A stretch of 63,442 nt of DNA, filler included, from Stramenopiles sp. TOSAG23-6 (GCA_900128565.1; 24 parts of 24 records of this genome joined end to end with filler, not necessarily neighbours in it); one strand, 5' to 3'; counted from the whole stretch's first letter, positions 15,744 to 63,442 are shown. Program-made: numbers and translations. The notes: generated by a model not told the origin, from the sequence alone.

Positions 15744-15841
15744 GTATGTTTTATTTTTTTTCAAATTCGAATTTATTTTTCGTACGGAATTTTGTACCTA
15801 ACAAATTTAAGTTTTTTTTTTGAAATATTTTTCCAAAATAC
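15744..15841 (+). mobile_element. GT-AT introner-like intron, truncated by contig end
   Basis: AT|GTATGTTTT...GTACCTAAC...CCAAAATAC. Confidence 0.85.
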
Positions 15842-16000
15842 NNNNNNNNNNNNNNNNNNNNNNNNNNNNNNNNNNNNNNNNNNNNTTAATTAATTAANNN
15901 NNNNNNNNNNNNNNNNNNNNNNNNNNNNNNNNNNNNNNNNNAAATTTTGTACCTAACGGTTTTTTTAGAATTTTTTTTGAAATATTTTTCCAAAATACAT

Positions 16001-16250
16001 GGGATATACATCCCTTCAACCAGTGTCCAGTGCAATATGCGTTATTGTAGTGATTTTTCTTACTGATAACAAATTTCACCTACAAAAACCTGGTTACAAC
16101 TTATTAGGGGGGATAGGAATATTAGCTGGATTAAGTTGTATTATTTACGAACAAAATCGAGAACAAAAAAAAATACAGAAACATTTAAATCAGGGTAACT
16201 CTACTCATGAGAGTCAAAGTGAGAATTTACTTTCATCTTCAGACAATTAA
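16001..16250 (+). CDS. Terminal exon of a membrane protein, following a truncated family intron (15942-16000)
   Basis: Two hydrophobic segments in the frame opening directly after CAAAATACAT. Confidence 0.55.
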
Positions 16251-16740
16251 AATAAAATTCGACGTAAAAAAAAACACAAATACACTTTTTCATTTATACA
16301 ATTTAAAAAGTTATTTTAGTAAAAAACTGAATCGGACTACACTCATTGTGTAACAAAAGTAGTACAATACAAAATTTTACACCATCAAAAAGACAAAATT
16401 TTACATCATCAAAAAGACAAAATTTTACATCATCAAAAAGACAAGAGACATTTTTTCAAGACTAAAAAAATCAATAGAAAAAATCATAGGAAACTTCACG
16501 AAACTTCAAAATATTATGAAATAAAACACCACACATACATCAACCAATTCTGTTGATTGCTTCTTAAAATTTTCCAGTCCCAGAAATTTAAATTAAAACT
16601 CTAACCCTAACCCAGAAATTCAAAGTAATGAAGTAAGTAACCAAGAACAAAAGTAAAAAAGAAATCATAGAAATAACCCAAACCAAAACAATATAAATCC
16701 ACGAAATTAGTTAATATAAAGTATAGCAAATACATTTAGA

Positions 16741-18496
16741 TTAATACGGTGTACGACGCATCGTATTTGTAGCAGTTCGAACCGGACCTGCAGTACCTCC
16801 GGAAGCGCTTGTTTGTTGTTGTCCATAGGGTACACTTCCATAAGCGCCTCCATAGTAAGCAGGATTAGCAGCATATCCTTGAGGAGCAGCTACATAAGCT
16901 TGTGTATTGACTGCAGATGTTGGAGCTGTGCCTGTTGCATTGTTTGTAGCTGGTTTTCCTTGAGGTGGATAACCTGCTTGATAACTACTGGCAGCTGGAA
17001 CACCATAACTTGGAGGAGCTGTATGGGTTGCGGAATTAGTGGATTTTTGAGTACCAGTGGCAGCTGTTCCATAGCTAGCACCATGCATTGGAGGTGCATC
17101 ACCTGTTGCTTTCTGAGCATATGATTGCCTGGCGGCAGCAGCAGCTGCACCGCCACCACCATAAGAATACATACTACCATAAGGAGGCATATGACCATAT
17201 TGAGCTGCATGTTGTGTATATCCATACCCACTTGCAGGTGGATATCTAGCTCCTCCACCATATCCGTATTGTTGTGCATACCCACCGGCGTTGTACCCAC
17301 CGGCGTAACCACCACCATACTGTTGGGTTCCATAACCACCACCATTATACATGCCTCGATTATGGTTATTGTTCTGATTGTTTCTAGGAGGAGTTGCGGT
17401 CGAGACATTACATGTCAAATCTTTGATCTGTACAAATCTAGAAGCAATTGCTCTCTGGGGTGCTCCCAGTGCATCCTCCGAAAATGTGACAAAACCATAA
17501 CCTTTGCAACGGCCCGTCTGACCATCACGAACAATGTTACATGCATCGATTCGACCATATTGCGCAAAAACTTCTAACAAATCATTTTCCAATATATGGT
17601 CACGAAGTCCACCAACAAAAATTTTTCTGTCACTACTTCCGACAGCAGGAGCACCACCACCACCACCACCAGATGCTGCATTTGAATAATTTGAATAATT
17701 TGAAGCAGGAGGTTTGTGATGGCCTGGAGGAGTACTTGATTTAACAGTCAAAATTCTTTCCATAAATTTGAGTGCCTCAGGATTTTGAACTATAAGAGGA
17801 TGGTTTCCAGCAATAAGTGATCTTGCTACTCTAACATCTTCAAAGGAAATAAAACCGAAACCCTTCGACTGATTTGTTACGCGATCTCGAACGACTTTAC
17901 AATCCTCAATTTTTCCAAATTTGCTGAAGAAATGATAAACTTCTTCATCAGTGGCTCCAAAAAATATCCCAGCGACAAAAATTTTTCGTTCATGTCTTTC
18001 GTGATCTGGTGCCGCAGGTGCATTAGCCATATACGTTTCAGGATTTATATACGATACAGGTTTTGTTCCATTCGTCGCTGCAGCTGGGTTTTCTGTGGTA
18101 GGTTGAATCTCGTTGGCGGCGGCGAGGGCGGCAGCGAGGGCGGTATTCGTGCCTGTTTCTTCTTTTTTATCTTGCCCCGTTTCGTTGTTGGAGCCATTTG
18201 TATCTTCCTCTTGAACATCAGATTTCTCCTGGTTTTCAGCTTCAACTTCTTTTTCAGCAACCTTAATACTTTCAGTCTCAGTTTCATTCTCAGTAGGTAC
18301 TGTGGCTGTGGGTGGAGAGACTTTTGTTTTAGCAAGTTCATCTTCCTCTGCAACAACTTCAGAAGGCTTAGTGTCTTTCAATGACGCATCAGTTTCCTCT
18401 GATGTAATCACTTCATCCGAAGTTTCTTTCGCGTCTATTTGGTCTCCTTCCACCTCCTCCAGTCTCGCAATTAGTTCAGCTTTTCGCCCATGTGTG
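16741..18496 (-). CDS. hnRNP A/Musashi-like RNA-binding protein: SAP-like tail, two RRMs, G/Y-rich tail; 5'-truncated
   Basis: KIFVAGI/KGFGFISF and KIFVGGL/KGYGFVTF RNP motifs; frame extends upstream to GRKAELIARL. Confidence 0.9.
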
Positions 18497-18651
18497 NNNN
18501 NNNNNNNNNNNNNNNNNNNNNNNNNNNNNNNNNNNNNNNNTTAATTAATTAANNNNNNNNNNNNNNNNNNNNNNNNNNNNNNNNNNNNNNNNNNNNATTT
18601 TTTTTTTTTTTTTTTTTGGATAATAAAACAAAAACATTCAAAAAAACGTAC

Positions 18652-20617
18652 ATTACTGTTGGTACTTGATCAAAACCATCAAAACCATCAAAATAAATTT
18701 TGTATTGCTGAAAATTTTGGTACAAATACATTTTACTTAAAATTGAATTTGCATTTCGTTTACTATGTTTCCCAGAAATTTCTATTTTTTGAATGGCTTC
18801 AAGTAATTCATTATCAAACACAAATTTTAATTGTCTATTTTTTGTTTTTTTTGGGTTAGGGTTAGGGTTTGTTTGAACATTTGATATCAACGTTTTAAAT
18901 TCACCAGGAATGTGTTCAATTTTTGGTATTATACCAATATTAGCTAATCCAATTTGGAATTTATTTGTAATGAGTGTATTAATATTATCTATTGTATTAC
19001 TTGGTTTTGTATATAAAACTTCATTCATTTTTAAAATTGTTTTTTCAAGATTTAAATCAAGATTTAAATCAAGATTTTTATCAGAATGTTTCGTCTTTAT
19101 ATTTTTTATTTCTTCCATATTTCGTGTGTTCGTTGCATCGTTGTTTTTTTGATGTACTATATTTTGTAATGTTGTTAAAATCCATAAAAACGAACAAGAT
19201 GATGTAATTGGTTGTAATAACCCTATTTTGTGAAAAAGTAAGTTCAATTTGAAATGTGTTATGACGACGACGTACATAAATTACATATTGAATGATGTTG
19301 ACAATTTCCGTTATTCTGTTGTGAATCTCTACTTGTTATTGTGTGGTGTGTTGTAGAAGAGTTTAATTTCGAATTTCTTAATGATTTTTCTTGATTTTTT
19401 TTTGAGTGTTTCTTGTTATAACTTTTTCTATGATTTTTATGACTCGGTGAATTTTGACCACCACCTCCTCCCATATACTGAAGAGCATTAATATAGTATA
19501 ACAAATCATTTTTACAAATCTTATCATAGTCTATACGTCTCGCATGTATTAACTCTGAAAACTCATTTAAACTCATTTTGATACTATTTTTTTGATGTTT
19601 TTGATGTTTTTGATTTTTGATATTGTTTTGATGTGTAGTATTTTCATCAGATAAGTTATATTCATCATTGTTTACATGATTATTATTGAAATCATTACTG
19701 AAATGATCATTACATTGATCATTGTTTACATCATAATTAGAGTTCAATTTTTGTTGTACTAATATAGGGTTTGTAGACAATAATGCTCTTGTGTAATAAC
19801 TTGGTATAAAACAAAAATGTTTTTGATCACCAGAACAATCATTTTCAAAATGTTCAAAATTGTTTTTTTGTTCTCTTATATTTGAATGACGTCCACCACA
19901 TGTTTCATAATCATAATAATCATCATTACATAAAATTATTTTTTCTTTTACAATTTGAAAATTTTTTAAAATTTTAAAAATGGCAGAGTGATCAGTAGCT
20001 AAATTATTAAAAATATTTTGTCGAAGATGCAATGTGGAATCATAAATTATACATAATTTGTACAATGATACTATTGAATCACTAAAATCATTATTCCTAT
20101 TTAAATCAATGATTGGTGTTTTTGAAATAAGCAGTTTTGTGACAACACTTGTCATTCTTGCGACGGCGACATGTAACTTTGAATGATTTGGAAAAAGAAT
20201 TTTGATAATCAATACTGACTTCTTTTCATATTTTTGAATAATAAGTGGTAATAAAGCTTCACGAATAGCAACAAGAGTAATATCTATGTTACGAAGTATT
20301 CCTAAAAAATATAATAAAGTTCTTTTACAACTTCGTATTAATGTTTGACTGACATCATCATAATTCTTTACAACTACTTCACTTTGAGTCCCTTTTTCAT
20401 CACCAGCCTTCGTTTCTTTAAATCGGTTTTCTTTGGATTGTACAGCAGTATCTTTTTCATTCGCAATGCTGCCTGCAGTAGCACCGGCCAACCACGGCGC
20501 TGAATCAAGATTACGCAAATATTTACGAATAACAGGAGTACGTATCCCAGAAAATGATTCTGGAATACGGTCATTGACTTCGTTTTTATCGTACATTTTT
20601 CTGAATTTGTCATAGTT
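18652..20617 (-). CDS. Hypothetical Asn-rich protein; exons 20617-19276 and 19222-18652
   Basis: Two ORFs joined in frame by a 53-nt GT-AG intron; family intron starts at 18651. Confidence 0.6.
19223..19275 (-). other. Canonical GT-AG intron
   Basis: GTACGT...TTTTTCACAAAATAG; explains the apparent frameshift. Confidence 0.75.
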
Positions 20618-21250: not shown

Positions 21251-22855
21251 TTTTTTGAGTTGCTTTTCATATTTATCCACGAGAACTATTGGTGGTTTTA
21301 TAAAGCGTTTCCTTAGGTAAGCAATACCTATAGGGTGACTTGCAAAACGAGCAAATGTTCCAAATGCTAATTGATCTGTGACTACTTTCCTCACCTCATC
21401 AAACATATCTAATGAAATTGATTTATCAGAGCCAACAATTTGAGCATCTAATACCCTATCCCGCTGAGCTGTAGATATTGAAGGTAAAATCATTGCTGGG
21501 GCTACAAATAATTCTGTAATTTCTACAATTTCTGCAGCAAACCTTTTCGGGTTTTCTTCTGGATCTATCTGTCGGAATTTTTCTACACGGAGCCAAAAGT
21601 CAACACGAAATTGTGATTCCGATTTTGTTGCATACATGCGGAAAATGTCAAATCCTTCTGGATCTCTCAATGTTTTCAATAATGCAACTCGTTGAAGTTC
21701 TTCTGGAGTATTACGAAGATCTTCAACTTTAAATCCTCGGTACTCATCAAGTTTTCTTTCTCGTTTATCTTCCCACCACATAATGTAACGATCGCGCTCT
21801 CTTTTTGCAATTCGAATTTGTCGTTTCGCATCTCGTACTAGAGGATGCTTCTTTCGTTTTATTTTTCCACTTTTCTTTTGTTTTGGCTTTTTTGTACGAC
21901 GTGTGTTATAATCCATCATTGCTGGAGCATGCTGCTCATGGAAATTATGAGCTTCATGTTCATTGGTATAAGCAGTTGTTGTAGCCACATTCATTTCATC
22001 ATACCGAAGCTTTTCCTCTAATTGTGCTTTATATTTAATCCACAAAGCTTCAGCGCGATCAAAATTTTTGCCTTTGAGTAAAACACCACCGAGTGAACTG
22101 ATCGCAGCCATAACATAGTGAGAATCAAGTTCATAATGAGAACGTCTAATTGTCAATGCTCGCATGATGTTCTCTTCTGCATCTTTGTATCGCCCAAGTT
22201 CACGACGAACTGCACCTAAAGTCATCAATGTATCCGCAATACAAGGATGATTTTTACCAAAAGCGAGCTCCCGAACTTCAAGACCTTTTGCAATGAAAGT
22301 ATCCGCTGGAGGAAATTGTTTCTCTCTGAAATAATATTGACCAACTTCTATTTCGGTGGGTCGCGCAGAGTATTGTGAAAAATATGTCATATTTGAAATT
22401 CGTTAGGTACGAAATATAGTACAAAAACAAAATTGAAATTAATTAAAGTGAAGAACGCACAACATTGATAGCTTCGCTTTCCAGAAATCTCGATCTCCTG
22501 GAACCGGCACGGTCTCCTCCTTTTTTTTTGTATCATCTACTAACGTCGTAGGGTCCACGTCTGGCATGAGACCTCGTAGTTTATTGACTAAACCTGATGA
22601 TACAGAAAGTGAAAATTGCAGAGGTTTTTTTCTTTTTAGTTTATGTTTCTGAAGTTTTGACAATTTAGACAAGTCAACAGCTATGCCCTCTCCTTTTAAA
22701 ACTTTAGTGGATTTTGTTTTACTACCTACAATACTCGCTAATGTAGCATTTTTATCACCATCCAAATTTGGTTTTTCTAAAAGTTCTCCATTCCACCAAG
22801 CTTCCATTTGTTTTTTTCGATATACTTCAGCGTTATACTGCTTGAATATCGAAAG
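21251..22855 (-). CDS. TPR-repeat (kinesin-light-chain type) plus RGS-domain protein, partial
   Basis: GKNHPCIADTLMTLG..RELGRYKDAEE TPRs; RGS-like LRDPEG..F....FWL.VEKFR...FDE.....TFARF. Confidence 0.75.
22368..22460 (-). mobile_element. Family intron, variant end (GT...TC)
   Basis: TT|GTGCG...GTACCTAAC...CACAATACTC; joins the two ORFs in frame. Confidence 0.75.
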
Positions 22856-23068: not shown

Positions 23069-23158
23069 ATGTTTTGTGAAAAAAAGGTTTTGGTTTAAAA
23101 AAAATCGTTAGGTACAACATTTGGTACGAATATTTTTTTGTATATGATGAAAACATAC
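23069..23158 (-). mobile_element. GT-AT introner-like intron
   Basis: AT|GTATG...GTACCTAAC...CACAAAACAT. Confidence 0.8.
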
Positions 23159-23963: not shown

Positions 23964-26332
23964 TGGGCTCAAGGAATTTTAGGTTTAGCTGAAAAGATTC
24001 AAAAAGACTCACCCAATTGGGATCTTTTGATGACTTTGCATACTGCAGATAATTCTTTTGATGCAACTTTGGCAAAGAGTATTACAGAACTGCTCAAAGG
24101 ACTGCTTACCAAAAATCCAACGGAGAGAATCGGTCTTGCCGACGTTTTGCAACATCCATGTATATTTTATTTTTTTTGTTTTTTGTTTTTTTTACTATGA
24201 AATTTTTTTTTTTTTTTTCAAATTTTTTTTTTCGTACGAAATTTTGTACCTAACAATTTTTTTTGATTTTTTTTTTAAATATTGTCTTAAAATACATGGT
24301 TGACTCGATCTGGGCGTGACACTCAAATTTCCATGGGAGAAGAAACTCCTGAAATTGTCAAAGTTACACCAACAGAAATCAACGAAGCAGTGTATACAAT
24401 AAAATCTCTTGTATATATTGTCAAATTGAAAAGTCATATGCATAAACGGCTTTTAGTTGCACGAGATTCGATTGATCAGAAACATCAGCAATCTAACCCT
24501 AACCCTACGCATCAGCAATTGAATCAAAAACGTTTACATTCGTGTGAGGAGGTTCATGACAATAGTACAAACAAAACAACAAATAAAACATTGCGAATGA
24601 TATCTGATACAAAACAAAACAATACATCAACAAAAACAAAAGAAACGAAAACAAAAGACAAACATCTTCATACAAACCCTAGCAACGCTAATACAATATC
24701 ACAATTGAATACAATATCACAATTGAATACAATATCACAATTGAATACAAAAAACACAACTCAAGAGGGAAAAACATCAAATGAAAACAAAAAAGTAGAC
24801 AGTACACAATTGAAACCTTCAACAACAATGACAGATAATTGTCTCGTAGACCACAATACTTCACACAATTCAACAAATATTCATTTTGGAATACCATTAA
24901 CTGGAGGTGGCGACCTCGTAGATAAGTTTCATGCTAGTCCAAAAGTCACAATGACTTTGAAGTCTAGTTTAGGTAAAATTGATAAAGTTACAGTTGTCAA
25001 TTTATCTAGACAATTGCGTTCTAGTGAATCGATTGATAATGATTCATTTAGTACAGAATCGGCCAAGTCACAAATGAAAAGACTTCACTCCTTTTCACAA
25101 ATTCGAGATATAATGCAGTGTAGTGCTGAAAATATTCAAAATGTATATAAACATGGCAAAGTAAAAGGTAAAAAGTTGAGTAGTACAACAAATGTAGATA
25201 TCGATGATACTGAAACATCTGATGATGATGATTTTGGTATTAATACAGCTCAGATTCTTGTAACTAATAACAACTCTGGTATTGCCGTCTTGAATAATAA
25301 TAATAGAATATTATCTGATAGCTCTGTGAAACAAATGTATAAACAATCGTATAGCTATGACAATGTTTCAGATGTTGCAAAGTGGAATTCACATGGAAGT
25401 TTAAAAAGTTTAAAAAGTGTAGACGAGGATTATCTTAGTATCAGTGACGAAGCTTCTCTTGGATCAGATTACGAGGATGCTCAAGTTGTCGATGATATAT
25501 CAAATGTATTCAATAAAGACGTTGTTATGGGAGATGATACAACAACAACAACAAGAAGTTCAAGAAATAAAATAAAAACAAATACATGGCCCATCTCCGA
25601 AGAAAATACAACTAAAATGATCATCCAACATGAAGGCGGTGTTCAAAATAAAGCTATTAAAGTAAATATTGGAGGCGCTACATCACAGGGTCGCAGAACG
25701 TCACAGGAAGATCGTTATACATGTTTACCCACGCTCGGTCGAAGAGTAGTTTTAGGATTGGAAGAAGGACATGTCAGTGCGCGTAGGTTTTTTTTTAATT
25801 TTTTTTTTTTTTTTTTTTNACACGAAATGTTACAACATTTTTTTTTTTTTAGTTTTTTTTTTCATACTAAAATTTGTACCTAAGAAAAAAACCTTGATTT
25901 TTTTTTTTCACAATACATCTGGAGCTCCAACAGGAATCCAAAATATGAGTGATGATTTGAGCACTGCTTTTGTTGGTGTTTATGATGGACATAATGGCAT
26001 TGAAATAGCTCAGTTATTGAAGGAAAGATTACACGTTCTTGTGGCAAGAAGCAAACATTTTTGGGCTAATCCAGAAAAAGCTCTGAGAGATGCTTGTACG
26101 TTTTTTTTTTTTGTTTTTTAATTTTTTTCATACGAAATATGTATAGACAACAAAATGATGAAATGTTTGAAATATTTTTTCATACGAAATTTTGTACCTA
26201 ACAAACTTTTTATACCTAACAGAATCATTAAATGTTTGAAATCTTTGTTGACAATAAATGGACGGCTCTAGATGAAGAGTGTTTGAAAAAATCAGAAAAA
26301 GAGAAATACTATTCAGGGTCAACGGCTACCGT
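23964..26332 (+). CDS. Protein kinase C-lobe end, long linker, then PP2C phosphatase domain; partial
   Basis: LLTKNPTERIGLADVLQHPW; QGRRTSQEDR, FVGVYDGHNG and SGSTA after removing three introns. Confidence 0.8.
24160..24297 (+). mobile_element. GT-AT introner-like intron
   Basis: Splits the Trp codon of kinase motif HPW (T|GG). Confidence 0.9.
25783..25918 (+). mobile_element. GT-AT introner-like intron
   Basis: GC|GTAGG...CACAATACAT; restores the frame into PP2C DGH. Confidence 0.85.
26096..26259 (+). mobile_element. GT-AT introner-like intron with internal duplication
   Basis: TT|GTACG...ACAATAAAT; restores the frame to SGSTA. Confidence 0.8.
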
Positions 26333-26397: not shown

Positions 26398-26430
<33 letters not shown>

Positions 26431-26551: not shown

Positions 26552-27855
26552 TTCTTGAGTGTGCTAACGCTACATCATCTAAAGTTAATACTCTACCATC
26601 ATGATAAACATCATCCATAATTGGTTTTATACTCCCTTTTTCTATTAAAGGCCAAACTTCTTTAAAAAGTGCCGTTGCAAGTCTTGATTTTGTTTCTATT
26701 TTTTGTGAACGTAATGTGGATCCAGTCATTGTTATTTGTTTCAAGAGTAATCGCATAATATTAAAGTTTTTAGCCACCGAGCCATTCCCCCCCATAAAAC
26801 CAATATGAATCAAATGCCCATTTTGGCGTAAAATGTCGATATTGTTTTGTAAATGTATTTTGGGAAAATATTTTAAAAATTGATGAAAAATGTTTGGTAA
26901 AAGATTTTTTGTCAATTGATGTATTTGGAAAAAAATTTAAAAAAAAAATCTACATACATAATCACCACCCACCATATCAAGAATCATATCAACATTCTTA
27001 CCACAATGTTTCACAATTTCCTCCTTGAAATCTTGTTTTTTATGTATTGCGAAAAAATATTTTTTTTGTAGTGTAAAAAAGTTGTTAGGAATAAAAACTT
27101 TTTACNAAAAAAAAAAAAAAAANAGGNAAAAAATTAGGGTTAGGGTTGATAGAAACATACATAATTTATAACTAATGATGCTCCCAAGTCTTCACATACT
27201 TTGCACTTTGTAGTAGATCCAGCTGTTGTTATAACATTCATGTATTTTGGGGAAATATTTTTAAAAAAATAAATCATTAGGTACAAAATTTGCTAGAAAA
27301 AACAAATTCGAAAGTGAAGTGAATGTCGAAATATATTCCTTTTGCAACAGCCAGTTGGATTGCTGAAGTACCAATTCCAGAACTACCTCCATGAACTAAT
27401 AGCGTTCGCCCAGGACTTAAAGGATTGGGGTTAGGATAATTTTCACATAAATTAAACCATACTGTGCTAAACGTTTCGGGAAGCGCGGCTGCCTCGCGCA
27501 AAGTTGTCCTACTTGGAACTGGAAGACAACATCGTGCAGGTGCAGCTGCAAACTCTGCATAACCACCACCAGCAATAAGAGTACACACCTTTGCACCCTT
27601 CACAAGTTCCTTTCCATCAGCACCAAACAAAGGTTGACTAGGAGTTTGACATACAGTTCCTGATACCTCTAAACCTGGTATATCTGAAGCACCTTTTGGA
27701 GGTTTGTACATTCCTTGTCGCTGTATGACATCTGGTCTATTTATTCCAGCATATGCTACTTTTATAAGCACTTCTTGCGAATTAGGAATAGGTATGGGTC
27801 TTCTCGTTATATGTAGCGCATTGGACATTATTTCAACAGCCTTCATCATTTTCAT
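26552..27855 (-). CDS. NADPH quinone oxidoreductase (PIG3-like MDR family), 4 exons
   Basis: GINRPDVIQRQG, PGLEVSG, AAALPE, LVHGGSSGIGTSAIQLA, GSTLRS. Confidence 0.92.
26853..26957 (-). mobile_element. GT-AT introner-like intron
   Basis: Joins DMVGGDY|LQNN. Confidence 0.9.
27042..27160 (-). mobile_element. GT-AT introner-like intron containing two telomere-type hexamers
   Basis: Joins INY|KKQDF. Confidence 0.9.
27240..27334 (-). mobile_element. Family intron with an AT donor instead of GT
   Basis: AT|ATATTT...GTACCTAAT...CAAAATACAT; joins AKG-M-NVITTAGS. Confidence 0.85.
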
Positions 27856-31850: not shown

Positions 31851-31943
31851 GTATGTTTTATATGAATTTCTAATTTATTTTTTTTTCATACGAAATTTCG
31901 TACNAANGATTTTTTTNANTACATTTTTTTTTTCACAAAACAT
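31851..31943 (+). mobile_element. GT-AT introner-like intron at contig start
   Basis: GTATGTTTT...CACAAAACAT. Confidence 0.8.
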
Positions 31944-34200: not shown

Positions 34201-34395
34201 GTACGTTTTCATTATGAATTTCAAATTTATTTTTTTTTTGGTTTCGTACGAAATTTTGTACCTAACATTTTTTTTTTTTTTGAGTTTTTATTTCGATACG
34301 TTTTCATTATGAATTTCAAATTTATTTTTTTTTTTTGGTTTCGTACGAAATTTTGTACCTAACAAATTTCGAATTTAATTTTTTTTACAATACAT
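34201..34395 (+). mobile_element. Family intron with a near-complete tandem self-duplication
   Basis: TACGTTTTCATTATGAATTTC...GTACCTAAC occurs twice; a single CAATACAT end. Confidence 0.75.
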
Positions 34396-36964: not shown

Positions 36965-37452
36965 GTATGTTTTATTTTTTTTTCAAAAAAATTTTTCGTA
37001 CGAAATTTTGTACCTAACAAAATTTTTTTTTTTTTTTTTTNNNNNNNNNNNNNNNNNNNNNNNNNNNNNNNNNNNNNNNNNNNNTTAATTAATTAANNNN
37101 NNNNNNNNNNNNNNNNNNNNNNNNNNNNNNNNNNNNNNNNCTTCTTCAAATTCTGTAACTTGTAAAAGTGTTTCGCGTTCATTCAATCGCATCTCCTCCA
37201 TAACGTAATATATATATGAATGTTAGAGACACAAGTAATACAAAAGTAAAATCTACTCCTTCCAAGTTTAACTTCCAAAAAAATCAAAATAGAAAAAAAA
37301 TCGTGATCGATCTGGCTTGCGCTTTGATGTCATATTTTTCGATTTTGACCGTCGAACTTCGAAGTCGCTGGCCATTGGCCAATTTTGACAAGTCCTAAAG
37401 AAGAGCTTTAAAAGCTACGCGACCACACGACGATAAATCAAAAAACTTATTA

Positions 37453-39300: not shown

Positions 39301-39379
39301 GTAAAATTTGTTAGGTACGGAATTTCGTACGAAAAAATAAATAAATTCGAAATTGAAAAAAATAAAACACACATCCAAT
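39301..39379 (-). repeat. Inverted copy of 38112-38190 (DDOST exon end plus 5' part of intron 1)
   Basis: Reverse complement matches with one mismatch. Confidence 0.85.
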
Positions 39380-47527: not shown

Positions 47528-47716
47528 GTTGGTTCTCCAACTGAATTTCAAATATTTTTTTTTCGTACGAAATTTTGTACCTAACAAATTTTAGTTTTTT
47601 TTTTGAAATATTNNNNNNNNNNNNNNNNNNNNNNNNNNNNNNNNNNNNNNNNNNNNTTAATTAATTAANNNNNNNNNNNNNNNNNNNNNNNNNNNNNNNN
47701 NNNNNNNNNNNNATAC

Positions 47717-50354: not shown

Positions 50355-50445
50355 ATGTATTTTAGAAAAATATTTCAAAAAAAATCCTTAGGTACAAAAT
50401 TTCGTATGAAAAAAAAATCAAATTTGAAAAAAAAATAAAACATAC
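50355..50445 (-). mobile_element. GT-AT introner-like intron
   Basis: Splits an EF-hand loop after DADDS. Confidence 0.85.
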
Positions 50446-51300: not shown

Positions 51301-52564
51301 ATGTTCCCCAAGCAGGGAGTTCCAAACTTTACTTATCGAACAACGAATGTTAAAAGCTCAATTTCTACTAAAGATAATATTGCTTCTGAGACTAGCAAAT
51401 CATTTTTAGAGGAAATCAATTTTACAAAGAAGAAAAAGAATGAAAAGCGTACTTCAAAAGAAGTGAAAGATATTAATCGTTTTTTGTTACAACGCTTAGC
51501 CTTTGGGACACAAAACTGCCCAAAAACAGCTAGACATACACTAAGAAGTCGGAGTCGATATAGAAGATTAATTATTTCACATTTCCCAAAACCTCGACCC
51601 AAAACTCCTGTGATTATACCACCTTTATTAGCAGAAAAACTTGATATTCTTGAGAAAAATATCACTTGTGATTTGCCTGAAAATGCAGAAAAGTTCAAAA
51701 AGTCTTTTCATATCAGTGAAAAAAAAAAAAAAATAGTTGGAGAATTGGCAAAAATGTCAAATGCCTCTTCAAGTAAATCAACCACTTTCTCACAAGATCC
51801 AAAGTCGTTTATTTTCAATTATGAAAAAGACTTTTGTGATCGTCACATACTAAAAAAACGCATTACAGCATTTAGTGTGACATCTGCAGTTCAAATTCAG
51901 AAATACCAATTCTCCAATTTGGGTAAAAGTGTAAAAGAGGAAAAACCTTTGATATGTAATCTATGCCAGTTACCTATATTATTTCCAAATCCATTTTCGA
52001 TAGGTCGGGGTTCCAAATGTATGTTTTCAAAATTATCTAAATTGATCTAAAATTATCTAAATTGTGTTGAACCAAATTTTGTACCTCATGAATTTTTTAA
52101 CCAAAAAAAAAAAAAAAAAAAATATTTTTTCACAAAACATCATCCCACTTTTCTTATTACTGTATAAAATGTTCTTTCCAGGCATGTAGTAAATGTGTCA
52201 TGAATCAAAAACGCGCAAGGATTAAATCAGCAATTGCATCTATTATGGCACAAACAGCAGCAACTTTTGCTTGTGCTATTGCCGAGGAGACTTGTACATT
52301 TTCATGATTATTTTTTTACCTAAATTTGTTTTCGTAGTAAATTTTGTACCTAACGAGTTTTTTACTACATCAAATAATAAAAATATGTTTCACAACACAT
52401 TATCTTTTGTTATAGAAAAGACAAAGGCTTTTCGAGCCAGACGCGAAGCTGCAATTTGGGCCTTAGGAAGACATATCGTTTATCGTAGACGTGATGTTGT
52501 CCCTGAAAATAAGTTAAGATCAATATTGTATAAAAGGAGTCACAGAAATTTACCACATAAATAA
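51301..52564 (+). CDS. Hypothetical protein with a Cys-rich zinc-finger-like segment, 3 exons
   Basis: CNLC...YYCIKCSFQACSKC assembled after removing two introns. Confidence 0.6.
52019..52140 (+). mobile_element. GT-AT introner-like intron
   Basis: GTATG...GTACCTCAT...CACAAAACAT. Confidence 0.82.
52294..52400 (+). mobile_element. GT-AT introner-like intron
   Basis: TT|GTACA...CACAACACAT. Confidence 0.82.
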
Positions 52565-53049
52565 ATGAGTTTTTATTTGATTTTTATACAAGTTTATGCT
52601 ATAATGTCTCATTTAAAAGTAGTTGAAGTTTTTCCATATTCCATTCTAGAATGTCAACGATATCCCATGTACAATAAATTGTTTGTGTACAAACCAAGTA
52701 TACATGATTCTACCATACGATTCCCTATAAAAAATATTTTACCCTAACCCTAACAAACCAAGTATACATGATTCTACCGTACGATTCCCTATAAAAAATA
52801 TTTTTCACATTTTTTTCTTTGGCATTGACAGATGTATGATGAAAAAATATTTCAAAAAAAAACTANAATNTNTNTTCTNTGNAAANTTTCGTANNNNNNN
52901 NNNNNNNNNNNNNNNNNNNNNNNNNNNNNNNNNNNNNTTAATTAATTAANNNNNNNNNNNNNNNNNNNNNNNNNNNNNNNNNNNNNNNNNNNNATTTTGT
53001 ACCTAACAAATTTAAGTTTTTTTTTTTGAAATATTTTTCCAAAATACAT

Positions 53050-54110
53050 GAAAATGTCTTTTATCCAATTATATTCCAAGAACCCAAAGAAGAAGAAATA
53101 ATGACAAAGTCTGCTGATAAGAATGTGGTGAACCCTAATTCTAGTTCAACAGATGATGACTATAAAATTGCAGTATGTTTTGCTTATCTTAGAAATGTGT
53201 ATCAACATAGTCTTATTAATACTTCAGTATTTGAATTAGTTGTTAGTCAAATGATCCGATCAAAAAGATATAAAGTATTAGATCAATTTCTTTTATATCA
53301 CAATTCTTACGACTCAATGCAATTAGGAGTAGTTTTAGCAGAAGCAGCTCTCTTTTATCCTGTACGTTTTCATTTCAATTTCGATTTTTTTTTTTTTTTG
53401 GTAAAAAAAATTTGTACCTAACAATTTTAATTTTGGAAATATTTTTCATACTCCATCCTCTACGATGTCGTGCGAATGATGTAATGATGAAATTGAAGGA
53501 ATCGGACAATATCATCAATAATTTATTGCGTAATAATGAATTATTTAGAGCAATGCGAATTGTTTTATATCGAAGCAAATCATCTACTTATCAACCGAAA
53601 CATTTTGCTTCAAATACTAGTCAAAATAAGACGATATTATTTAATAGATATAATCGAAATTCAGCCGAATTACAAGAAATAAGATACACGCCAAGCAAAT
53701 CTCGTGTTGAAAAGTTCTTTCTCACTGCTTTGAATATTTCATATACAAAACTCCATCAAACTCAAAATAGAGAGTCAATGTCTTCTCCTTCGGAATATTT
53801 GGAACACCAATGTTTGTATGTTTTCATTATTAATTTAAATTATTAATTTAAATTATTTATATTTGTTTTCATAGAAAATATTGTACCTAACGAATTTTTT
53901 TTTACGAAAAAAAAAAAATATTTTTCACAATACTTGATGGTTTTTCGTGGTGTTCAAAATTTCTTTGAAAAATGGGCACACAGCCCAGTCACCTCATTAG
54001 GCTCATCTGGAGTTTTAAAATTACCTCCCATTGGATCTGTACATTCGTTATCAGAACCAAATTTTGGTGGATTAAGAGAAAAAGTTATTCAATTGTTTGG
54101 AATAAAATAG
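53050..54110 (+). CDS. RMC1: Regulator of MON1-CCZ1 (Mic1/C18orf8)-like, 3' part
   Basis: L.QFLLYH..DS..L...FYPP...D.M.KL....I...LL pattern. Confidence 0.72.
53362..53456 (+). mobile_element. GT-AT introner-like intron
   Basis: CT|GTACG...ATACTCCAT; joins FYP|P. Confidence 0.87.
53816..53935 (+). mobile_element. Family intron, GT...TT variant
   Basis: TT|GTATG...CACAATACTT; opens a final exon of about 58 codons. Confidence 0.82.
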
Positions 54111-54183
54111 TACAAATTTTCATACTACTAAATAATCAATAGATATTTATTTACTTTACATCGATAGAAAATATTTATTTAGT

Positions 54184-55209: not shown

Positions 55210-55738
55210 CTAAAATCTGTGGGATATTCGCGACTTTTTATAAAATGAAATACAATAATAGCTATGTTTTACGTATCCTCTCACTCTCTCGAGACATTCG
55301 CTTCTAAAAAAAACTGTACATATTGCTCCATATTATTGCTTTTGAGAATTCGTGTTTACATACTATTATTAGAGATTTCGTTACTATTTGAAAATAATAA
55401 AATTATTAAAATGTACAATTTAACTAGCTATAATATATATATATATATGATTTTTTTAATTTTTATTTTCATCATTCAAATCAACATAAAAAAAAGCAGC
55501 GATGATATATCGAACACCCTTACTTATAGTTTGNNNNNNNNNNNNNNNNNNNNNNNNNNNNNNNNNNNNNNNNNNNNTTAATTAATTAANNNNNNNNNNN
55601 NNNNNNNNNNNNNNNNNNNNNNNNNNNNNNNNNATTTTGGAAAAATATTAAATTTTTTTTTTTTAAAATTTGTTAGGTACAAAATTTCCTATTAAAAAAT
55701 AAATTCGATTTTTTTGTTAAAAAAAAAATAAAACATAC

Positions 55739-56956
55739 ATTTTTTCCGCAGCCGTTGAAACAAGAACACTCATTTTTTTACGTGGTGAACAAATATGCTT
55801 TGGAGATGTAGACGATTCTCTTTTTTTTGAACTTTTTGAACTTTTTGGAGATGTAGAAGTGTCTCTTTTTTTTGAATTTTTTGAAGGTTTCGAATTGGGT
55901 GTTTTTTCTGTTGTTTTTTTTCGTGATGTTTTTGAAAAATTATCTAGAGACGTTTCAGATGTATCATGTTGTGAATCATCAACTGTAGCAGGACCTTGTA
56001 TGTTATCTACCCTTGTCTTTTGTAAACAACATTGTTTTGAGCCCTTTCCATTAACAACATAAGGTTGTTTTCTTACTTGTCTCAGCATTTTTTTTACATT
56101 AGTCAGAGTTTGCTTTAAGATATGNGGTGGGCAAATATCTACTTTTGTTATGACAACAATTAAAGGTATATGAAGACATGTAGCTAGACCTACATGTTCA
56201 CGAGTCATTTTAGGTACGCCCATGTTTGATCCAACTAATACTATGGCATAGTCAGGTCGCAATCCTGTTAGTCCATAAATTGTTGTTTTTAAATATTTTC
56301 TATGTCCACAAAGATCAAATAAATGAATCTGCCGATCTGTTTTTTCCATTATTTCTTTAAAATAACTTTTAGGTTTTCCTCTTTTAAGATCTATAATGAT
56401 TTAATGGTATATACTAAGTGTTGTACGATGAGTTTGGTTTGTGTTTTTATAGTGCAAATGGAAACGTTGAAAAAATATATACATATTGTGTTGTCATTTC
56501 AATGTAAAAAAACGTACCAACAAAGATTTGTTCCGATATTGAATCATCATCTGTGCTATCGTCGGCAGGTTGATCACGATATCCGATAAGTTGTTGTGAT
56601 ATTGAACTCGTTCTTCCACTTTCAGCTTCGTGCTTGTGTGAGAAAACGACTTCACGAGCAAGACCACGTCCGTCATCTAGTTTTCCACCACAAAGAACAC
56701 CGATTAAAGTTGACTTTCCACTATCAACATTACCAATCATAGCAATGCGAATCTCATTGCCACCATATGACTTTTTTGTGGAATCTAAAACATCTGGCAT
56801 TCTTGTTGAAATATCTTTTACACCAATTTCTGTAAAAGTTTCAACTGAAGATATTTTTCGATTTATTCCAATTTTCAAATAATTTTCTACAAAGAAAGAA
56901 CTCTCTGCAATCAACAGGTTTGTTCCATTTTGAACATTTGAAAACAATAAAAACAA
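55739..56956 (-). CDS. GTPBP1/GTPBP2-family translational GTPase, partial; GT-AG intron 56391-56517; family intron from 55738; start uncertain
   Basis: [40 protein letters not shown]. Confidence 0.92.
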
Positions 56957-58170: not shown

Positions 58171-58417
58171 NNNNNNNNNNNNNNNNNNNNNNNNNNNNNN
58201 NNNNNNNNNNNNNNTTAATTAATTAANNNNNNNNNNNNNNNNNNNNNNNNNNNNNNNNNNNNNNNNNNNNGTACGAAATTTTGTACCTAACGAATTTTTT
58301 TTTGAAATATTTTTCCAAAATACATGTTTCGTACAAGCAAAGGAATGGGTGTGCGTATGAATGGATGTTTGAGTGGTTTTGCACCTGCGATGAATGGTTT
58401 ACTTGAAAGTTCAATTT

Positions 58418-60740: not shown

Positions 60741-60906
60741 ATATATTTTGTAAAAATATTTCAAAAAAAAACTAAAATTTGTTAGGTACAAAATTTTTAT
60801 AAAAAANNNNNNNNNNNNNNNNNNNNNNNNNNNNNNNNNNNNNNNNNNNNTTAATTAATTAANNNNNNNNNNNNNNNNNNNNNNNNNNNNNNNNNNNNNN
60901 NNNNNN

Positions 60907-62762
60907 TTTCAAGTACATGATTGATAAATTGGACTGCATCAATCACTTGATTTATATTTGTTTTTTTCCTACTAAAATCAATACTAAATTTCCTTCTTGT
61001 GCGTTTTTCCTTTTTAGTGATATTATGATCAGTTCGTAGCTTACTATTGCTATTTTTCATATTTATATTTGGTGTTGATAACGATTTTTTTCTTACCGAT
61101 GTTGTATTATTATTCACTTTTGTCCTACGATTAGGAGATGATCTCTGTTTTGTATTATGATTATGATTATTACTATTATTATTCACTTTTGTCCTACGAT
61201 TAGGAGATGAGCTCTGTTTTGTATTATGATTATGATTATTAACTCTTGTACTACTTGAAGGTGATCTCTGTTTTATATGACTTGTTTCCTTCATATGAGT
61301 AGTAAGAGGGATATCACGTGTACGTGAGCGTTTTGGATATTTTGGAGTCATATGCCTCTTTCTTCTCGGTGGGAGTGTTGGTTTTGGTTTATACCCACTT
61401 TTAATATATAACATTCCAAATGCATCTCTTCCATTTCTTGCATGTCTTATCATTTTACGTCGTTTCTTTACATGTGATTTGAGTAATGTACTTCTTAGAA
61501 ATTGATGAAAATCTGTCGAACCTCCATCAAGTAAATGTCTTATTTTCGTTTTAATTTCAAGTAAATCTTGTTCCATTTTTAAAATTCTTGGCAATCTTTG
61601 TTTGAATACATCTCTTCTGTTAAACTTTTTTTCAGCTTTTATTTCAAGACGAATTTCTTTTGCATGTGCTTTCCATTCATTTAGTAACTTCATACGTTTC
61701 ATTGTAGAAAATATATCATTTTTTGTAAAAAAATATTTCAAACATTTGAAATCGTTAGGTACGAAATTTCGTACGAAAAAAAAATAAATTTGAAAAAAAA
61801 ATAAAACGTACATTTTTTCTTCCGTCAAAAAAAGAACGCCTCTCCTCAAGACGTTTAACTCTGTTTGAAAGAACATTTTCTACTTTTCCATCTCTTCCAT
61901 GTACTACTTTTTTAAAATTTTCTTCAGCATTGTTCATCTCTTTATTCACAAAATCAGCAGATATTTTTATACCATGTGAAATTGAATCTTTTATTGCCTT
62001 TATATTTTCTTCAGCATTGTTCATCTCTTTATTCACTACATCAACTGTTTTTTTCCTCATTGCCTTTATATTTTCTTCAATATTGTTCATCTCTTTATTG
62101 ATAGCATGCAATGTTTGTTCTCCACTGTCCCTTATTACTCTTTGCATAGCATTTTCAGTCGCCCTCAGCTTGGATTCAGCATAATTCAACTCTTTTGTAA
62201 CAAAATGCGCCGCTTGTTTTGTACTGTTTGCTACCATAGTTTTGGATTTTTTAATACCTGAACCAACTTGATGCAACTCTTTATTAAGAATCGTTTTGGA
62301 TTTTTTAATACCTGAACTAATTTGATGCAACTCTTTATTAAGAAAAGGAACGACTTTACTTTTTTGTTTAGTTTTCAGTTTCTTATCTGATTTTTGAGAT
62401 GTTTCAATTTTTACACTAGAACTCGATTTTTTATCGTCATTTTCGAGAGCTTTACCAGGATGATCAGATGGTGGAGACAATCCTCTCATTCGCGCATATT
62501 GTGCTTGCATATGTTGATACGTAGCTATTGCTTTAGACTCTTCTATAGGATGATGTTTGTTTACATTTTCACCTTTAGTCGTTGCTTTACTTGAAGTATT
62601 TATGTTCTGTCTTGATTTTGGCTTACTACCATCACTTGAAGAGTCACTCTCGAAAGAGTCATTCTTGAAAGAATCACTCGAAGAAGTGTAACTACTACCA
62701 CCATTTGAAGTAGACCCTTCTTCAGCTTTGGAACTGGAATTTTTCGGATTACGCGATGACAT
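60907..62762 (-). CDS. Hypothetical coiled-coil/basic protein, 2 exons, 3'-truncated
   Basis: Two long ORFs joined by the family intron 61715-61811. Confidence 0.65.
61715..61811 (-). mobile_element. GT-AT introner-like intron
   Basis: AT|GTACG...ACAAAAAATGAT. Confidence 0.85.
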
Positions 62763-63089
62763 AAATACAGATACACTAAAGTTCTTAAAGTTCTGTATAT
62801 ATTCTTAAGAATAGATGAGATTCTTACTAAAGATGGGTGATTGGTTTTGTAACGCTGCGGCACTGGATACTACTACTACTACTGTACTGGTCGCTTGTAA
62901 AAAGAAACTCAATTTTTCGTCAATTTTTCTGAAACGGATCTTTCAAAAATCACGAAATATAATAAAAACCATGTCTTCGGGGATAATAAATCTAAAAAAA
63001 TATAATCAAAAATCGACATTTATTGTGTAAATAGTATATAATTCATCAAAGTTGAATCTATTTTGGATGTCCAATAATGACAGTCAAAA

Positions 63090-63384
63090 TTATTCATGGA
63101 TTTTCTTTGCCCGTGCAAACAGAGAATTAATTACTGTACCCATATAGTGTGAAAAAATATTCCAAAAAGAAATCGTTAAGTATAAAATTTTCTATAAAAA
63201 AATAAATTGAAATTAGAAATTAAAATTCCAAAAAGAAATCGTTAAGTATGAAATTTTCTATAAAAAAATAAATTGAAATTAGAAATTAAAATGAAGGATG
63301 AAAAACCTACATATTCTTCACAACTCCAATTGCACCCTTAAATACTCTATCTTCGTTTTGTGGTTCAAAAATAATTAAATGTCC
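63090..63384 (-). CDS. RPN6: 26S proteasome lid subunit Rpn6 C-terminus; exons 63384-63311 and 63141-63090
   Basis: Spliced peptide GHLIIFEPQNEDRVFKGAIGVVKNMGTVINSLFARAKKIHE resembles the PSMD11 C-terminus. Confidence 0.72.
63142..63310 (-). mobile_element. GT-AT introner-like intron with an internal duplication of about 65 bp
   Basis: AT|GTAGG...TACTTAAC twice...CACACTATAT. Confidence 0.82.
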
Positions 63385-63442
63385 ACGTATTGTGAAAAAA
63401 TATTTCAAAAAAAAATCGTTAGGTACAAAATTTCGTATGAAA

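Follow-up and report, generated by a model that had tools for sequence, protein, structure and literature searches.

The window analysed here, a stretch of 63,442 nucleotides with filler included, consists of 24 joined contigs of ~2.5 kb from an AT-rich marine eukaryote, the uncultured protist Stramenopiles sp. TOSAG23-6 (GCA_900128565.1), the first five contigs being mutually identical. Throughout it, unrelated genes are interrupted by short elements of one family.

An intron family across unrelated genes

With ≤3 mismatches allowed, a 25-nt core of the elements had 27 matches in the window and 0 in 100 shuffles. The original prediction had also called for an HMM of the element; the nhmmer profile, built from 23 seeds and run on the window, gave 63 hits at E≤1 and 49 at E<1e-3, the latter from contig 6 onward. 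Together with a few family-like introns that the profile missed, the family comes to ~50-55 members, in keeping with the roughly 55 that had been claimed. They had been placed in 15744-63442, where the family does lie, but contigs 1-5 also carry one partial copy each at their starts, i.e., before 15744. Every element with testable flanks is sense to the same-strand ORF, as had been proposed, the sole exception being a truncated inverted copy at 39302-39372. Of the 41 complete delimitable introns, 39 belong to the family, which supports the idea that one amplified element, now diverged, lies behind most introns. Autonomous elements, empty sites and intergenic copies were all lacking, and the family could be assigned to no superfamily. 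The features are listed below (a slash marks a junction).

15744..15841, +, family intron, 5' part and core (nhmmer model positions 1-95), 3' end cut off by contig end; exon ..AT/GTATGT
15942..16000, +, family intron, 3' part, contig start, ends ..ATACAT
19223..19275, -, GT-AG intron of 53 nt unrelated to the family (comparison feature)
22368..22463, -, family intron, degenerate ends GTTGTG..ATACTC; alternative in-frame AG acceptor 47 nt downstream
23069..23158, -, family intron GT..AT, 90 nt
24160..24297, +, family intron GT..AT, end of protein kinase domain, ..QHP/W..
25787..25918, +, family intron GT..AT, diverged 5' part
26096..26259, +, family intron with internal duplication, ends ATAAAT
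27042..27160, -, family-like intron GT..AT, missed by profile; contains (CCCTAA)2
27240..27334, -, family intron, first base A (AT/ATATTT..ACAT), zinc-type alcohol dehydrogenase-like gene
29474..29575, -, family intron GT..AT, subtilisin-like gene
29671..29776, -, family intron GT..AT, ends CCAT, subtilisin-like gene
29904..29998, -, family intron GT..AT splitting subtilisin-like ..DHGTH/VAGS..
30180..30286, -, family intron GT..AT, ends ATATAT, directly ahead of subtilisin Asp motif
30365..30518, -, GTAAGT donor combined with family 3' half, intron ends ATACAT
30589..30699, -, family element, 8-nt identical flanks (boundary ±4 nt); unspliced in one RNA-run contig
30816..30940, -, family-like intron, ends GA..AT, metacaspase-like gene
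31102..31207, -, family intron GT..AT; exact excision in polyA RNA contig X8 record 26
31271..31399, -, intron GT..TT, exon ends TT; splits metacaspase ..SGSCL/DLPF.. motif
31851..31943, +, family intron, contig start, ends AAACAT
32080..32173, +, family intron GT..AT, ARM-repeat gene
32671..32787, +, family intron GT..AT, ends GTAT
33347..33451, +, family intron GT..AT
33649..33743, +, family intron GT..AT
33921..34017, +, family intron GT..AT; exon ends GT, not AT
34201..34395, +, composite intron, partial copy then second copy, reaching contig end
34509..34636, -, family intron GT..AT, 128 nt
36005..36109, +, family intron GTTTGT..AT, LRR gene
36356..36456, +, family intron GT..AT
36559..36666, +, sole AG-ending family copy (ATACAG), family-equivalent position, in frame
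36965..37028, +, family intron, 5' part, truncated by contig end
38119..38217, +, DDOST intron 1, GTGTGT..ACAT; junction GLD/TLL gap-free against homologues
38410..38503, +, DDOST intron 2, GT..AT, exon ends GT; junction RER/GVL
38690..38800, +, DDOST intron 3, GT..AT; junction EEY/DHE
38963..39073, +, DDOST intron 4, GT..AT; junction DVY/GVY
39302..39372, -, inverted near-copy of DDOST intron 1, truncated, plus 7 nt of its exon, downstream of DDOST
47554..47608, +, family element core inside FKBP domain, truncated by contig end
49729..49815, +, family intron GT..AT, exon ends CT, RPA-interacting protein gene
50355..50445, -, family intron GT..AT adjoining contig end, EF-hand gene
52019..52140, +, family intron GT..AT, core diverged
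52294..52400, +, family intron GTACAT..AT
52994..53049, +, family intron, 3' part, contig start
53362..53456, +, family intron GT..AT, ends CTCCAT
53816..53935, +, family intron GT..TT, exon ends TT
55665..55738, -, 5' part of family intron; its GTPase gene also has GT-AG intron 56391..56517
56391..56517, -, unrelated GT-AG intron, GTPase gene (comparison feature); Pfam GTP_EFTU positions 4-62 and 64-151 on flanking ORFs
58271..58325, +, family intron, 3' part, contig start
59138..59229, -, family intron GT..AT, RCC1-repeat gene, ..FNH/SG..
60741..60799, -, family intron, 3' part, contig end, ends ATATAT
61718..61811, -, family intron GT..AT, ends AAAAAT; flanking ORFs 331 and 270 codons
63142..63310, -, family intron, internal tandem duplication, GTAGGT..TATAT
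63385..63442, -, family intron, 3' part, window end, ends ATACGT

Family introns measure 87-169 nt (median 106; mostly 90-140 bp had been claimed), with a GC content of 0.18 and a median pairwise identity of 0.68 among 20 copies. All three of the blocks attributed to them beforehand are present, namely GTAYGTTTT at the 5' end, a core resembling a branch site (CCTAAC), and a T-rich stretch closing with ..AAWACAT; the stretch runs into a conserved ..CAMAAWAC near the 3' end, and the 3' block as a whole reads ..TTTTTYCAMAAWACAT.

Exact removal in reading frames and transcripts

Exact removal of the elements kept the reading frame in 11/11 confident cases and in 32 of the 36 flank pairs with at least 20 open codons on either side, where chance would give 1 in 3, and three of the four misses were in frame when inspected by eye. 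If retained, the elements would bring an in-frame stop in 25/32 and a frameshift in 19/32. After removal, all four DDOST junctions align gap-free with 9 homologues, and reading intron 2 as GT..AT yields Arg, as in the closest homologue (P0121). Past intron 1 the next AG lies 10 nt downstream and has a stop codon after it, bearing out the stop or frameshift expected there; the downstream AG of intron 2 likewise leads to a stop, and an in-frame AG 6 nt upstream in intron 4 would insert two residues that none of the 9 homologues has. The restoration of conserved motifs that had been claimed is seen at the DDOST junctions and in the joined peptides of the subtilisin (..DHGTH/VAGS..), kinase (..QHP/W..) and RCC1 (..FNH/SG..) genes, but not for Rpn6, since no Rpn6/PCI match occurred among the ORFs scanned, a part of those in the window.

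The original prediction had also named observations that would speak against splicing: transcripts retaining the elements or spliced at distant AG sites, and DNA lacking the elements. In a seawater metatranscriptome, a contig of polyA RNA run X8 (record 26; 151 nt, 1 mismatch) runs from 31234..31206 straight into 31099..30978, which is the removal of intron 31102-31207 exactly as predicted, and it keeps GTTTTAG after the AT site, so that the TTTTAG acceptor 7 nt downstream is unused; this junction support is one short contig, with 29 nt on one side, below the 31-nt bridging rule of the search tool. Other RNA-run contigs (X7 record 17, X12 record 5) retain elements and could represent pre-mRNA or DNA. 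As to DNA, the elements are present both in DNA-run contigs X3, from an independent seawater sample, and in the assembly itself. Frame and homology for many elements, with the RNA contig for 31102-31207, support their exact removal.

Splice signals and intron boundaries

AG is the near-universal end of introns. Here, AT is the end of 34 of the 39 family introns and AG that of a single one, and AG ends number 3/41 among all complete introns (two unrelated GT-AG introns and the one family copy, ending ACAG), so that the absence of an AG acceptor, as originally claimed, describes most of the family but not every intron. Shifting the boundaries of family introns yields no AG end. An AG lies 4-12 nt downstream of the AT site in 12/38 introns and the AT site is still chosen, which suggests that the 3' motif is actively recognised and that laxity is not the explanation. 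AG still matters, judging by its depletion between branch motif and 3' end (6 observed against ~25 expected from composition). One ordinary GT-AG intron even shares its GTPase gene with a family intron; as GT-AG introns coexist with the family, AG recognition is retained, and the specificity for the AT site comes on top of it rather than in its place. The relaxed or altered 3' specificity proposed earlier may apply, but AG recognition persists and the AT site looks actively recognised.

Donor and end bases are conserved above the background identity of the family: +1 G in 38/41, +2 T in 40/41 and +5 G in 34/41, with T or C at +4, and, at the 3' end, A at -2 and T at -1 in 37/40 each. Nearly as conserved are -4 A (38/41) and -3 C (35/41), the pair preceding the final AT varying among copies (AC, AT, CC, AA, GT). 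The branch-like motif occurs in 38/40 copies, at a distance to the 3' end of 31-70 nt (median 39). In just 24/38 introns is the terminal CAT also the earliest one past this motif, and hence no simple scanning rule accounts for the choice of site. RNAalifold predicted 0 conserved pairs in 20 copies, and the terminal inverted repeat (ATGTAT and ATACAT) spans 4-6 bp only.

Because the exon usually ends in AT, the cut position in most copies can be placed only to within 1-2 nt. In 27/39 copies the intron closes with the same two bases as the exon before it, both TT-ending introns being preceded by exon TT, and the duplicated dinucleotide is not seen in 12/39. An exon ending AT is combined with an intron ending ..ACAT in 24/39 copies; non-AT bases stand upstream of the copies at 33921, 38410, 49729, 50445 and 52294. 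In three or four copies (27334, 30940, 30699) the aligned donor GT is missing and the upstream AT kept; these individual copies suit an AT..AC reading better.

The introner reading and its alternatives

We consider it rather probable (about 0.7) that these are spliceosomal introns derived from one amplified mobile non-coding element, i.e., an introner, using a non-AG splice site, with a 2-bp target duplication as a probable part of the process. Such an element would have multiplied through the genes of the protist, possibly by DNA transposition, each copy bringing its own strong signals (donor GTAYGT, branch site CCTAAC, T-rich tract and ..CAMAAWAC). The 2-bp target-site duplication would leave the final intron bases, usually AT, repeating the last two of the upstream exon, a cut after the second AT would be needed for the frame, and the machinery would make it ~39 nt past the branch site, passing over AG dinucleotides a few bases beyond, while splicing AG-ending ordinary introns in the same transcripts. 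On sequence grounds, the yeast-like GTAYGT, CCTAAC, T tract and AG depletion past the branch suggest the major spliceosome as the agent, probably cutting at GT and after AT without a shift of 1-2 nt. For a G(+1)/U(-1) terminal pair, no established precedent is known from the major spliceosome. Within the window there is no gene for an snRNA or a splicing factor. Our literature search found no description of a repeat-derived GT-AT intron family, just as the original prediction knew of none; if true, this would be an unusual way for a cell to choose its intron ends.

Some of this evidence would also accommodate AT..AC introns cut two bases upstream at both ends (AT/GTAYG....AAWAC/AT), which we nevertheless regard as unlikely. 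The A(+1)/C(-1) pair is accepted by spliceosomes, so that no new 3' specificity would be needed, and the compatibility of AT-AC terminal pairing was reportedly established by Parker and Siliciano in 1993. Moreover, both readings give the same mRNA in the 24/39 copies with exon AT and intron ..ACAT, the GT-mutated copies 27240-27334 and 30816-30940 keep the upstream AT, and the conservation of -4 A and -3 C comes close to that of the final two bases. However, exon -2 is not A in 10/40 copies, which would require GT, CT, TT or AG starts; the U1/U6-binding donor match of GTAYGT requires G at +1; His would replace Arg of the closest homologue at DDOST intron 2; and the bases ahead of the final AT are variable. 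A transformed minor (U12-like) spliceosome, tolerant of non-AG ends including GT-AT and with an introner-driven expansion of minor-type introns, has a slim chance in our judgement: the family donor GTATGTTTT departs from the minor-type donor mainly at +5, and CCTAAC is similar to the minor branch motif CCTT[G/A]AC given in a Physarum study (bioRxiv 10.1101/2020.10.12.336362), but +5 G with T or C at +4 is major-type, and the branch motif stands 31-70 nt away from the 3' end, against 9-12 nt in Physarum polycephalum, whose introns of this kind have U12-type donors, and generally short distances.

Non-spliceosomal removal is very improbable, whether as DNA excision like that of ciliate internal eliminated sequences or guided by structure as in euglenid nonconventional introns and Amoebophrya hairpin introners. 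The element ends do form a short inverted repeat, with direct repeats lying across the boundaries, formally resembling the inverted and direct repeats of Amoebophrya introners (PMC7789003), and the single spliced contig could derive from element-free DNA; yet RNAalifold finds no conserved pairs, borders and branch motif are conserved where Amoebophrya has no terminal signature, the elements are present in X3 and in the assembly, and the joined form came from a polyA RNA library. Least credible of all is that nearby AGs are the real acceptors and the AT ends an artefact of forced open frames. An AG within 12 nt downstream in 12/38 introns, and the in-frame AG acceptor 47 nt downstream of the degenerate copy 22368-22463, would fit it, but DDOST aligns gap-free solely with AT sites, its AG alternatives give stops (introns 1 and 2) or two residues found in none of 9 homologues (intron 4), and the RNA contig retains the bases from the AT site to the next AG.

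Returning to the introner reading, introners of Micromonas and Aureococcus were reportedly described by Huff et al. in 2016 and in a review, and, as cited in PMC13326754, non-canonical introns of the tunicate Fritillaria borealis by Henriet et al. in 2019. In F. borealis, GT/AG introns make up <10% and a variety of ends occurs, at the 5' side too (PMC13326754), unlike the canonical 5' end and uniform AT 3' end in our protist lineage. Non-canonical introns of the U12 type in P. polycephalum resemble ours in that GT-AT recurs and the donor is T-rich past GTAT, but differ in forming no repeat family (bioRxiv 10.1101/2020.10.12.336362). The marine protist Amoebophrya likewise has intronic repeats whose ends are not AG, with direct repeats a few bases long across the boundaries; its introners, however, show no terminal dinucleotide signature and carry 8-20 nt inverted repeats forming hairpins (PMC7789003), whereas here conservation extends to donor, branch motif and 3' block, and no structure is predicted. 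Like the introners of Micromonas and Aureococcus, and transposon-derived introns more widely, the present family is a short, sense, non-coding repeat in many unrelated genes, each copy with its own splice signals and, probably, with a short insertion-site duplication joining the intron boundary; the introners described have canonical ends, and the survey of Gozashti et al. (2025; PMC12130899) took AG and AC as 3' sites and re-examined or dropped families whose sites were unfamiliar, whereas 34/39 copies here end in AT.

A repeat family and its removal from host genes

The large family of GT-AT repeats put forward in the original prediction was borne out by copy number and sequence as well as by reading frame and homology. 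About 50 sense copies lie across at least 15 contigs, within genes for DDOST, subtilisin, metacaspase, kinase, RCC1, FKBP, ARM and LRR proteins. The core motif gave 27 matches at three or fewer mismatches versus none in 100 shuffles, and the profile of the element that had been called for, built from 23 copies and run with nhmmer, returned 63 matches at E<=1 in the window. At E<1e-3 there were 49 profile matches in contigs 6-24, plus one partial copy opening each of contigs 1-5, and a few further family-like introns escaped the profile. Complete copies measure 87-169 nt (median 106), with a GC content of 18%.

AT commonly closes the upstream exon (-2 A in 30 and -1 T in 36 of 40 copies) and is followed by the donor GTAYGTTTT, with +1 G in 38, +2 T in 40, +3 A in 37, +4 T or C in 38, +5 G in 34 and +6 T in 38 of 41 copies. 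By its sequence, this is the extended GTAYGT donor of the U1/U6-pairing type that characterizes major (U2-type) introns. A variable T-rich stretch then leads to the palindromic TTTCGTACGAAA and to the most conserved block, TTTTGTACCTAAC, after which come a variable spacer, a T tract (T in 31-40 of 41 copies at positions -16 to -11) and the terminal ..YCAMAAWACAT, where intron -2 is A and -1 is T in 37 of 40 copies each. A branch-like motif, found in 38 of 40 copies and reading CCTAAC in 30, lies 31-70 nt (median 39) from the 3' end, and the family thus has a branch sequence of the U2 type (CTRAY, yeast-like TACTAAC, before a pyrimidine tract). Pairwise identity among 20 copies has a median of 68% (range 55-88%) and the three blocks stay above 85-90%, as expected of old copies in which selection has preserved the signals. 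RNAalifold found no conserved pairing in an alignment of 20 copies (0 pairs, energy 0).

Some copies show further peculiarities. In 10 of the 27 core matches, CA stands in place of the CG within the palindromic TTTCGTACGAAA, so that the commonest change in the core is a CpG transition, as cytosine methylation would yield. Internal tandem or partial duplications leave two branch-like motifs per intron at 34201-34395 (+), 63142-63310 (-) and 26096-26259 (+). Adjoining the DDOST stop on its downstream side, a truncated, inverted near-copy of DDOST intron 1 (39302-39379, -) carries one mismatch over about 85 nt and includes 7 nt of the upstream exon; this may reflect a true local inverted duplication, or chimera formation during single-cell genome amplification.

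Removal of the GT..AT element restores the reading frame. When the longest open frame on either side was considered, the frames were joined in all 11 confident cases and in 32 of the 36 whose flanks each offer 20 or more open codons, the chance expectation being 1 in 3. In three of the four misses it is the longest-frame rule that fails, and the frames join when read by eye, namely 30180-30286 (..SSKSI|GKGQIVGVGDSG..), 30365-30518 (..PHV|IGHDE..) and 31271-31399 (..SGSCL|DLPF..); the fourth is 25787-25918. Retention, considered for 32 copies, would bring an in-frame stop in 25 and a frameshift in 19, with read-through possible in 6. DDOST with its four introns removed encodes 468 residues and aligns without gaps against nine homologues at GLD|TLL, RER|GVL, EEY|DHE and DVY|GVY. 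An AG 10 nt past intron 1 and another 4 nt past intron 2 each run into a stop, and splicing at an in-frame AG that lies 6 nt short of the intron 4 end would insert two residues found in none of the nine homologues. Single short subtilisin exons matched PDB sequences at E 0.4 or worse, or not at all, and their junctions could not be placed in that way.

With introns out, metacaspase-like and subtilisin-like parts at 29202-31570 (-) share one frame across 30589-30699 and 30365-30518. They could belong to one gene that fuses two proteases or to two separate genes; at 30518 the GTAAGT donor overlaps a TAA. The metacaspase-like label is putative and based on sequence motifs, not on a Pfam match.

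For RNA, contigs assembled from public runs were aligned on contig 12 alone, which carries protease exons. Most of them sit on the repeat itself, with joins mainly from repeat to repeat; alignments within repeats were skipped, one record was informative on splicing, and the uncovered parts of contig 12 carry no information. That record, number 26 of the polyA metatranscriptome X8 (151 nt, one mismatch), runs from 31234 to 31206 and then from 31099 to 30978, which is the exact predicted removal of intron 31102-31207, given a 2-nt ambiguity as GT starts both the intron and the next exon. One record supports the join, and its shorter arm spans 29 nt, below a bridging rule of 31 nt. The sequence GTTTTAG is retained after the junction, indicating that a canonical-looking TTTTAG acceptor 7 nt downstream was skipped and the AT site used. 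Other RNA-library records, X7 record 17 and X12 record 5, run continuously from exon into intron and may be pre-mRNA or DNA. The RNA support that the original prediction had looked for was obtained in part, as one polyA contig with the exact GT..AT join beside RNA-library records that keep the element. Removal from RNA with exact exon ligation is probable, one contig showing the join at 31102-31207 and homology backing four further introns. In DNA, the family occurs both in the assembly and in contigs of DNA runs, data in which rare emptied forms would not show.

Intron class and choice of the 3' splice site

The interpretation of these elements as GT..AT introns appears largely right, with the spliceosome as the probable agent and the exact cut as deduced from the copies. 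We assign a probability of roughly 0.7 to the reading that they are spliceosomal introns descended from an introner and cut as GT..AT. They differ from minor (U12-type) introns, whose donor is RTATCCTT and whose branch motif lies near the 3' end, in having +5 G in 34 and +6 T in 38 of 41 copies and a branch-like motif at a median of 39 nt (31-70 nt). GT-AT introns of Physarum are described as a minor class of U12-type introns with the branch motif 9-12 nt from the end (bioRxiv 10.1101/2020.10.12.336362). The nonconventional introns of euglenids and the introners of Amoebophrya have ends joined by pairing and borders that are not conserved, whereas here no pairing is predicted for 20 copies and the borders are conserved; Amoebophrya introns are described as repeated and non-canonical, with hairpins and no terminal signature (PMC7789003). 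For Fritillaria, the literature reports GT/AG introns below 10% and a U2-type spliceosome with divergent U2AF paralogues (PMC13326754).

In most copies, exon ..AT precedes GT and the intron ends in ..AT, so that GT..AT, TG..CA and AT..AC excision all give the same mRNA; boundary shifts of 1-2 nt yielded no AG end. A cut two bases upstream, which would make these AT..AC introns, agrees better with copies 27240-27334 (first base A) and 30816-30940 (GA), both of which keep the upstream AT. It nevertheless seems improbable to us: GTAYGT is the standard donor solely with G as +1, GT is more constant across copies than the upstream AT, and exon -2 A is missing in 10 of 40 copies. At DDOST intron 2, where the exon ends in ..GT, the GT..AT cut yields Arg as in the closest homologue, whereas the shifted cut yields His. 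We therefore favour GT..AT as the excised piece, as judged from these comparisons.

The 3' end departs from the AG of U2-type introns. Among 39 family ends, AT accounts for 34, TT for 2, and TC, AA and AG for 1 each, and of the complete introns, 41 in all, AT closes 34 and AG 3. The latter are as follows.

Introns ending in AG
36559-36666: family copy ending in ACAG at the family-equivalent position, in frame
19223-19275: unrelated GT-AG intron of 53 nt
56391-56517: unrelated GT-AG intron of 127 nt in a GTPase gene (Pfam GTP_EFTU profile positions 4-62 in the upstream and 64-151 in the downstream ORF)

No T was found at in-frame acceptor positions near the GTPase intron 56391-56517. The same gene continues into a family intron at 55738, and both kinds of intron hence occur in one transcript. 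From the branch motif to the 3' end, the count of AGs was 6 versus about 25 expected from composition (the copies being related rather than independent samples), and 12 of 38 introns have an AG within 12 nt downstream in the exon. The organism thus still reads AG, yet in these introns the AT site wins. We take this as evidence of specific recognition of the conserved 3' block, rather than of a merely lax 3' end. A simple rule of the first CAT after the branch site was rejected, the terminal CAT being the first in just 24 of 38 introns. As for the claim that most introns here derive from one amplified element spliced with altered 3' specificity, the family and its exact removal stand, and the coexistence of AG introns (3 of 41) qualifies it.

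Origin and significance of the family

In 27 of 39 copies the final dinucleotide of the exon recurs at the end of the intron (AT..AT in 24, TT..TT in 2, AA..AA in 1). Both TT-ending introns follow an exon TT, an ending shared by just 4 of the 39 exons. The pattern agrees with a 2-bp target-site duplication around GTAY..WAC and subsequent drift in 12 copies. It agrees less well with reverse splicing, or with an insertion between A and T that duplicates nothing; a Helitron-like A^T insertion of the latter kind suits most copies and fails in the two TT..TT cases. DNA transposition with a 2-bp duplication is our best guess, at about even odds, as the terminal inverted repeat is short (4-6 bp; GTAT/ATAC, or 6 bp once the duplicated AT is counted), no transposase domain was found in the large unassigned ORFs that were scanned in the window (63 kb of fragmented assembly), and no empty site was found: in JGI metagenome contigs, nothing matched the 25-nt core exactly and nothing was related to DDOST exon 1. 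Neither an autonomous partner nor copies outside genes, as the mark of a transposon, were found in the 63-kb window, where the sole non-intronic copy is the truncated inverted duplicate.

Tc1/mariner elements were set aside since a TA-duplication reading fails to restore the frame, and we take the family termini to be unlike theirs. The ends resemble the GUGYG..AY of group II and group III introns, which were rejected on account of the 100-nt size, the nuclear genes and the lack of predicted structure.

Introners are a known kind of element, and the family shares that kind and differs by its uniform non-AG 3' end. A full-text search retrieved no family of GT..AT introns from a literature in which most subscription journals were outside its scope, and an earlier description is possible. 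In a single-cell genomics paper on uncultured stramenopiles, introns are mentioned in the methods alone. An introner survey accepted AG or AC 3' ends and rechecked or discarded unfamiliar ones (PMC12130899). Because such surveys begin from annotated introns with AG or AC ends, families like this one would be overlooked. This affects studies of intron gain, and standard gene callers would fragment most genes of such organisms; gene prediction in this uncultured marine protist lineage requires a GT..AT intron model.

Few signals in eukaryotic genes are as constant as the AG that ends nuclear introns. To our knowledge, large-scale departures from it are few (Fritillaria, Amoebophrya, euglenids and diplonemids), and each is informative on how the spliceosome reads its substrate. 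We lean slightly towards a scenario in which the major spliceosome of a free-living marine protist would accept U as the last intron base, with more than four in five introns being GU..AU and seeded by one mobile element whose 2-bp AT target duplication gives the 3' end; the site would be chosen through ..CAMAAWACAU over AGs a few bases downstream, and AG introns would be spliced in the same transcripts. If so, the rule that pairs first and last intron bases in nuclear splicing would have a natural exception on a genome scale, and the target preference of a transposon would match the host's 3' splice-site recognition. Combining a normal donor and branch site with a single uniform non-AG end, the family offers a clean natural experiment on 3' site selection in the second step, posing the questions of which factor reads ..ACAU and how G(+1) is accommodated with U(-1).

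Contigs, source samples and further features

The 24 contigs of the window (2,536-2,557 nt; GC 0.26-0.39 per contig) are separated by N runs flanking a short stop-codon linker. Contigs 1-5 (1-13185) are one 2,557-nt contig five times, with 0 differences over 2,557 positions; the copies probably arose artificially, in the assembly or when the window was put together. Each carries a gene with ERGIC_N and thioredoxin domains that enters a family intron at the contig start. By coordinates, at least 14 contig ends fall inside a family copy, implying that the repeat is what breaks the assembly.

The stretch is present in small public DNA runs of one organism and in seawater metagenomes and metatranscriptomes. 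Among the seawater contigs placed on contig 12 from runs X3, X7 and X12 (DNA and RNA libraries), which numbered 957, 1,299 and 5,452, the 5,452 belong to an independent DNA run. Depth in these runs over the 2.5-kb contig peaks in bins with family introns and is about zero over most exons; it follows from such peaks in independent seawater DNA that the family is very abundant in nature. The repeat is a conspicuous part of the seawater samples, and its unspliced form is present in RNA libraries.

An RPB1 fragment (43616-44950, -) is 78% identical to one JGI protein and 50-58% identical to oomycete, raphidophyte, diatom and plant RPB1, which indicates a eukaryotic source, perhaps among the stramenopiles, that lacks close named relatives. 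Best matches in the protein collection were 57% identical for DDOST and 78% for RPB1, so that no spliced protein of this species was found in it. Rfam and ARAGORN gave no match across the window, minor snRNAs (Rfam) included. LRRNT_2, seen in one LRR protein here, is unusual outside plants and some stramenopiles.

Other features
16744-18495 (-): RRM gene, an intron-free ORF of 584 codons with two RRM domains and a Gly/Tyr/Pro-rich tail; GC 0.45, well over the remaining window
47714-48778 (-): LRR protein whose N-terminal domain is a plant-type LRRNT_2
27130-27150 (-) and 16598-16612 (+): (CCCTAA)2, a short telomere-like sequence found at both places, the first inside intron 27042-27160
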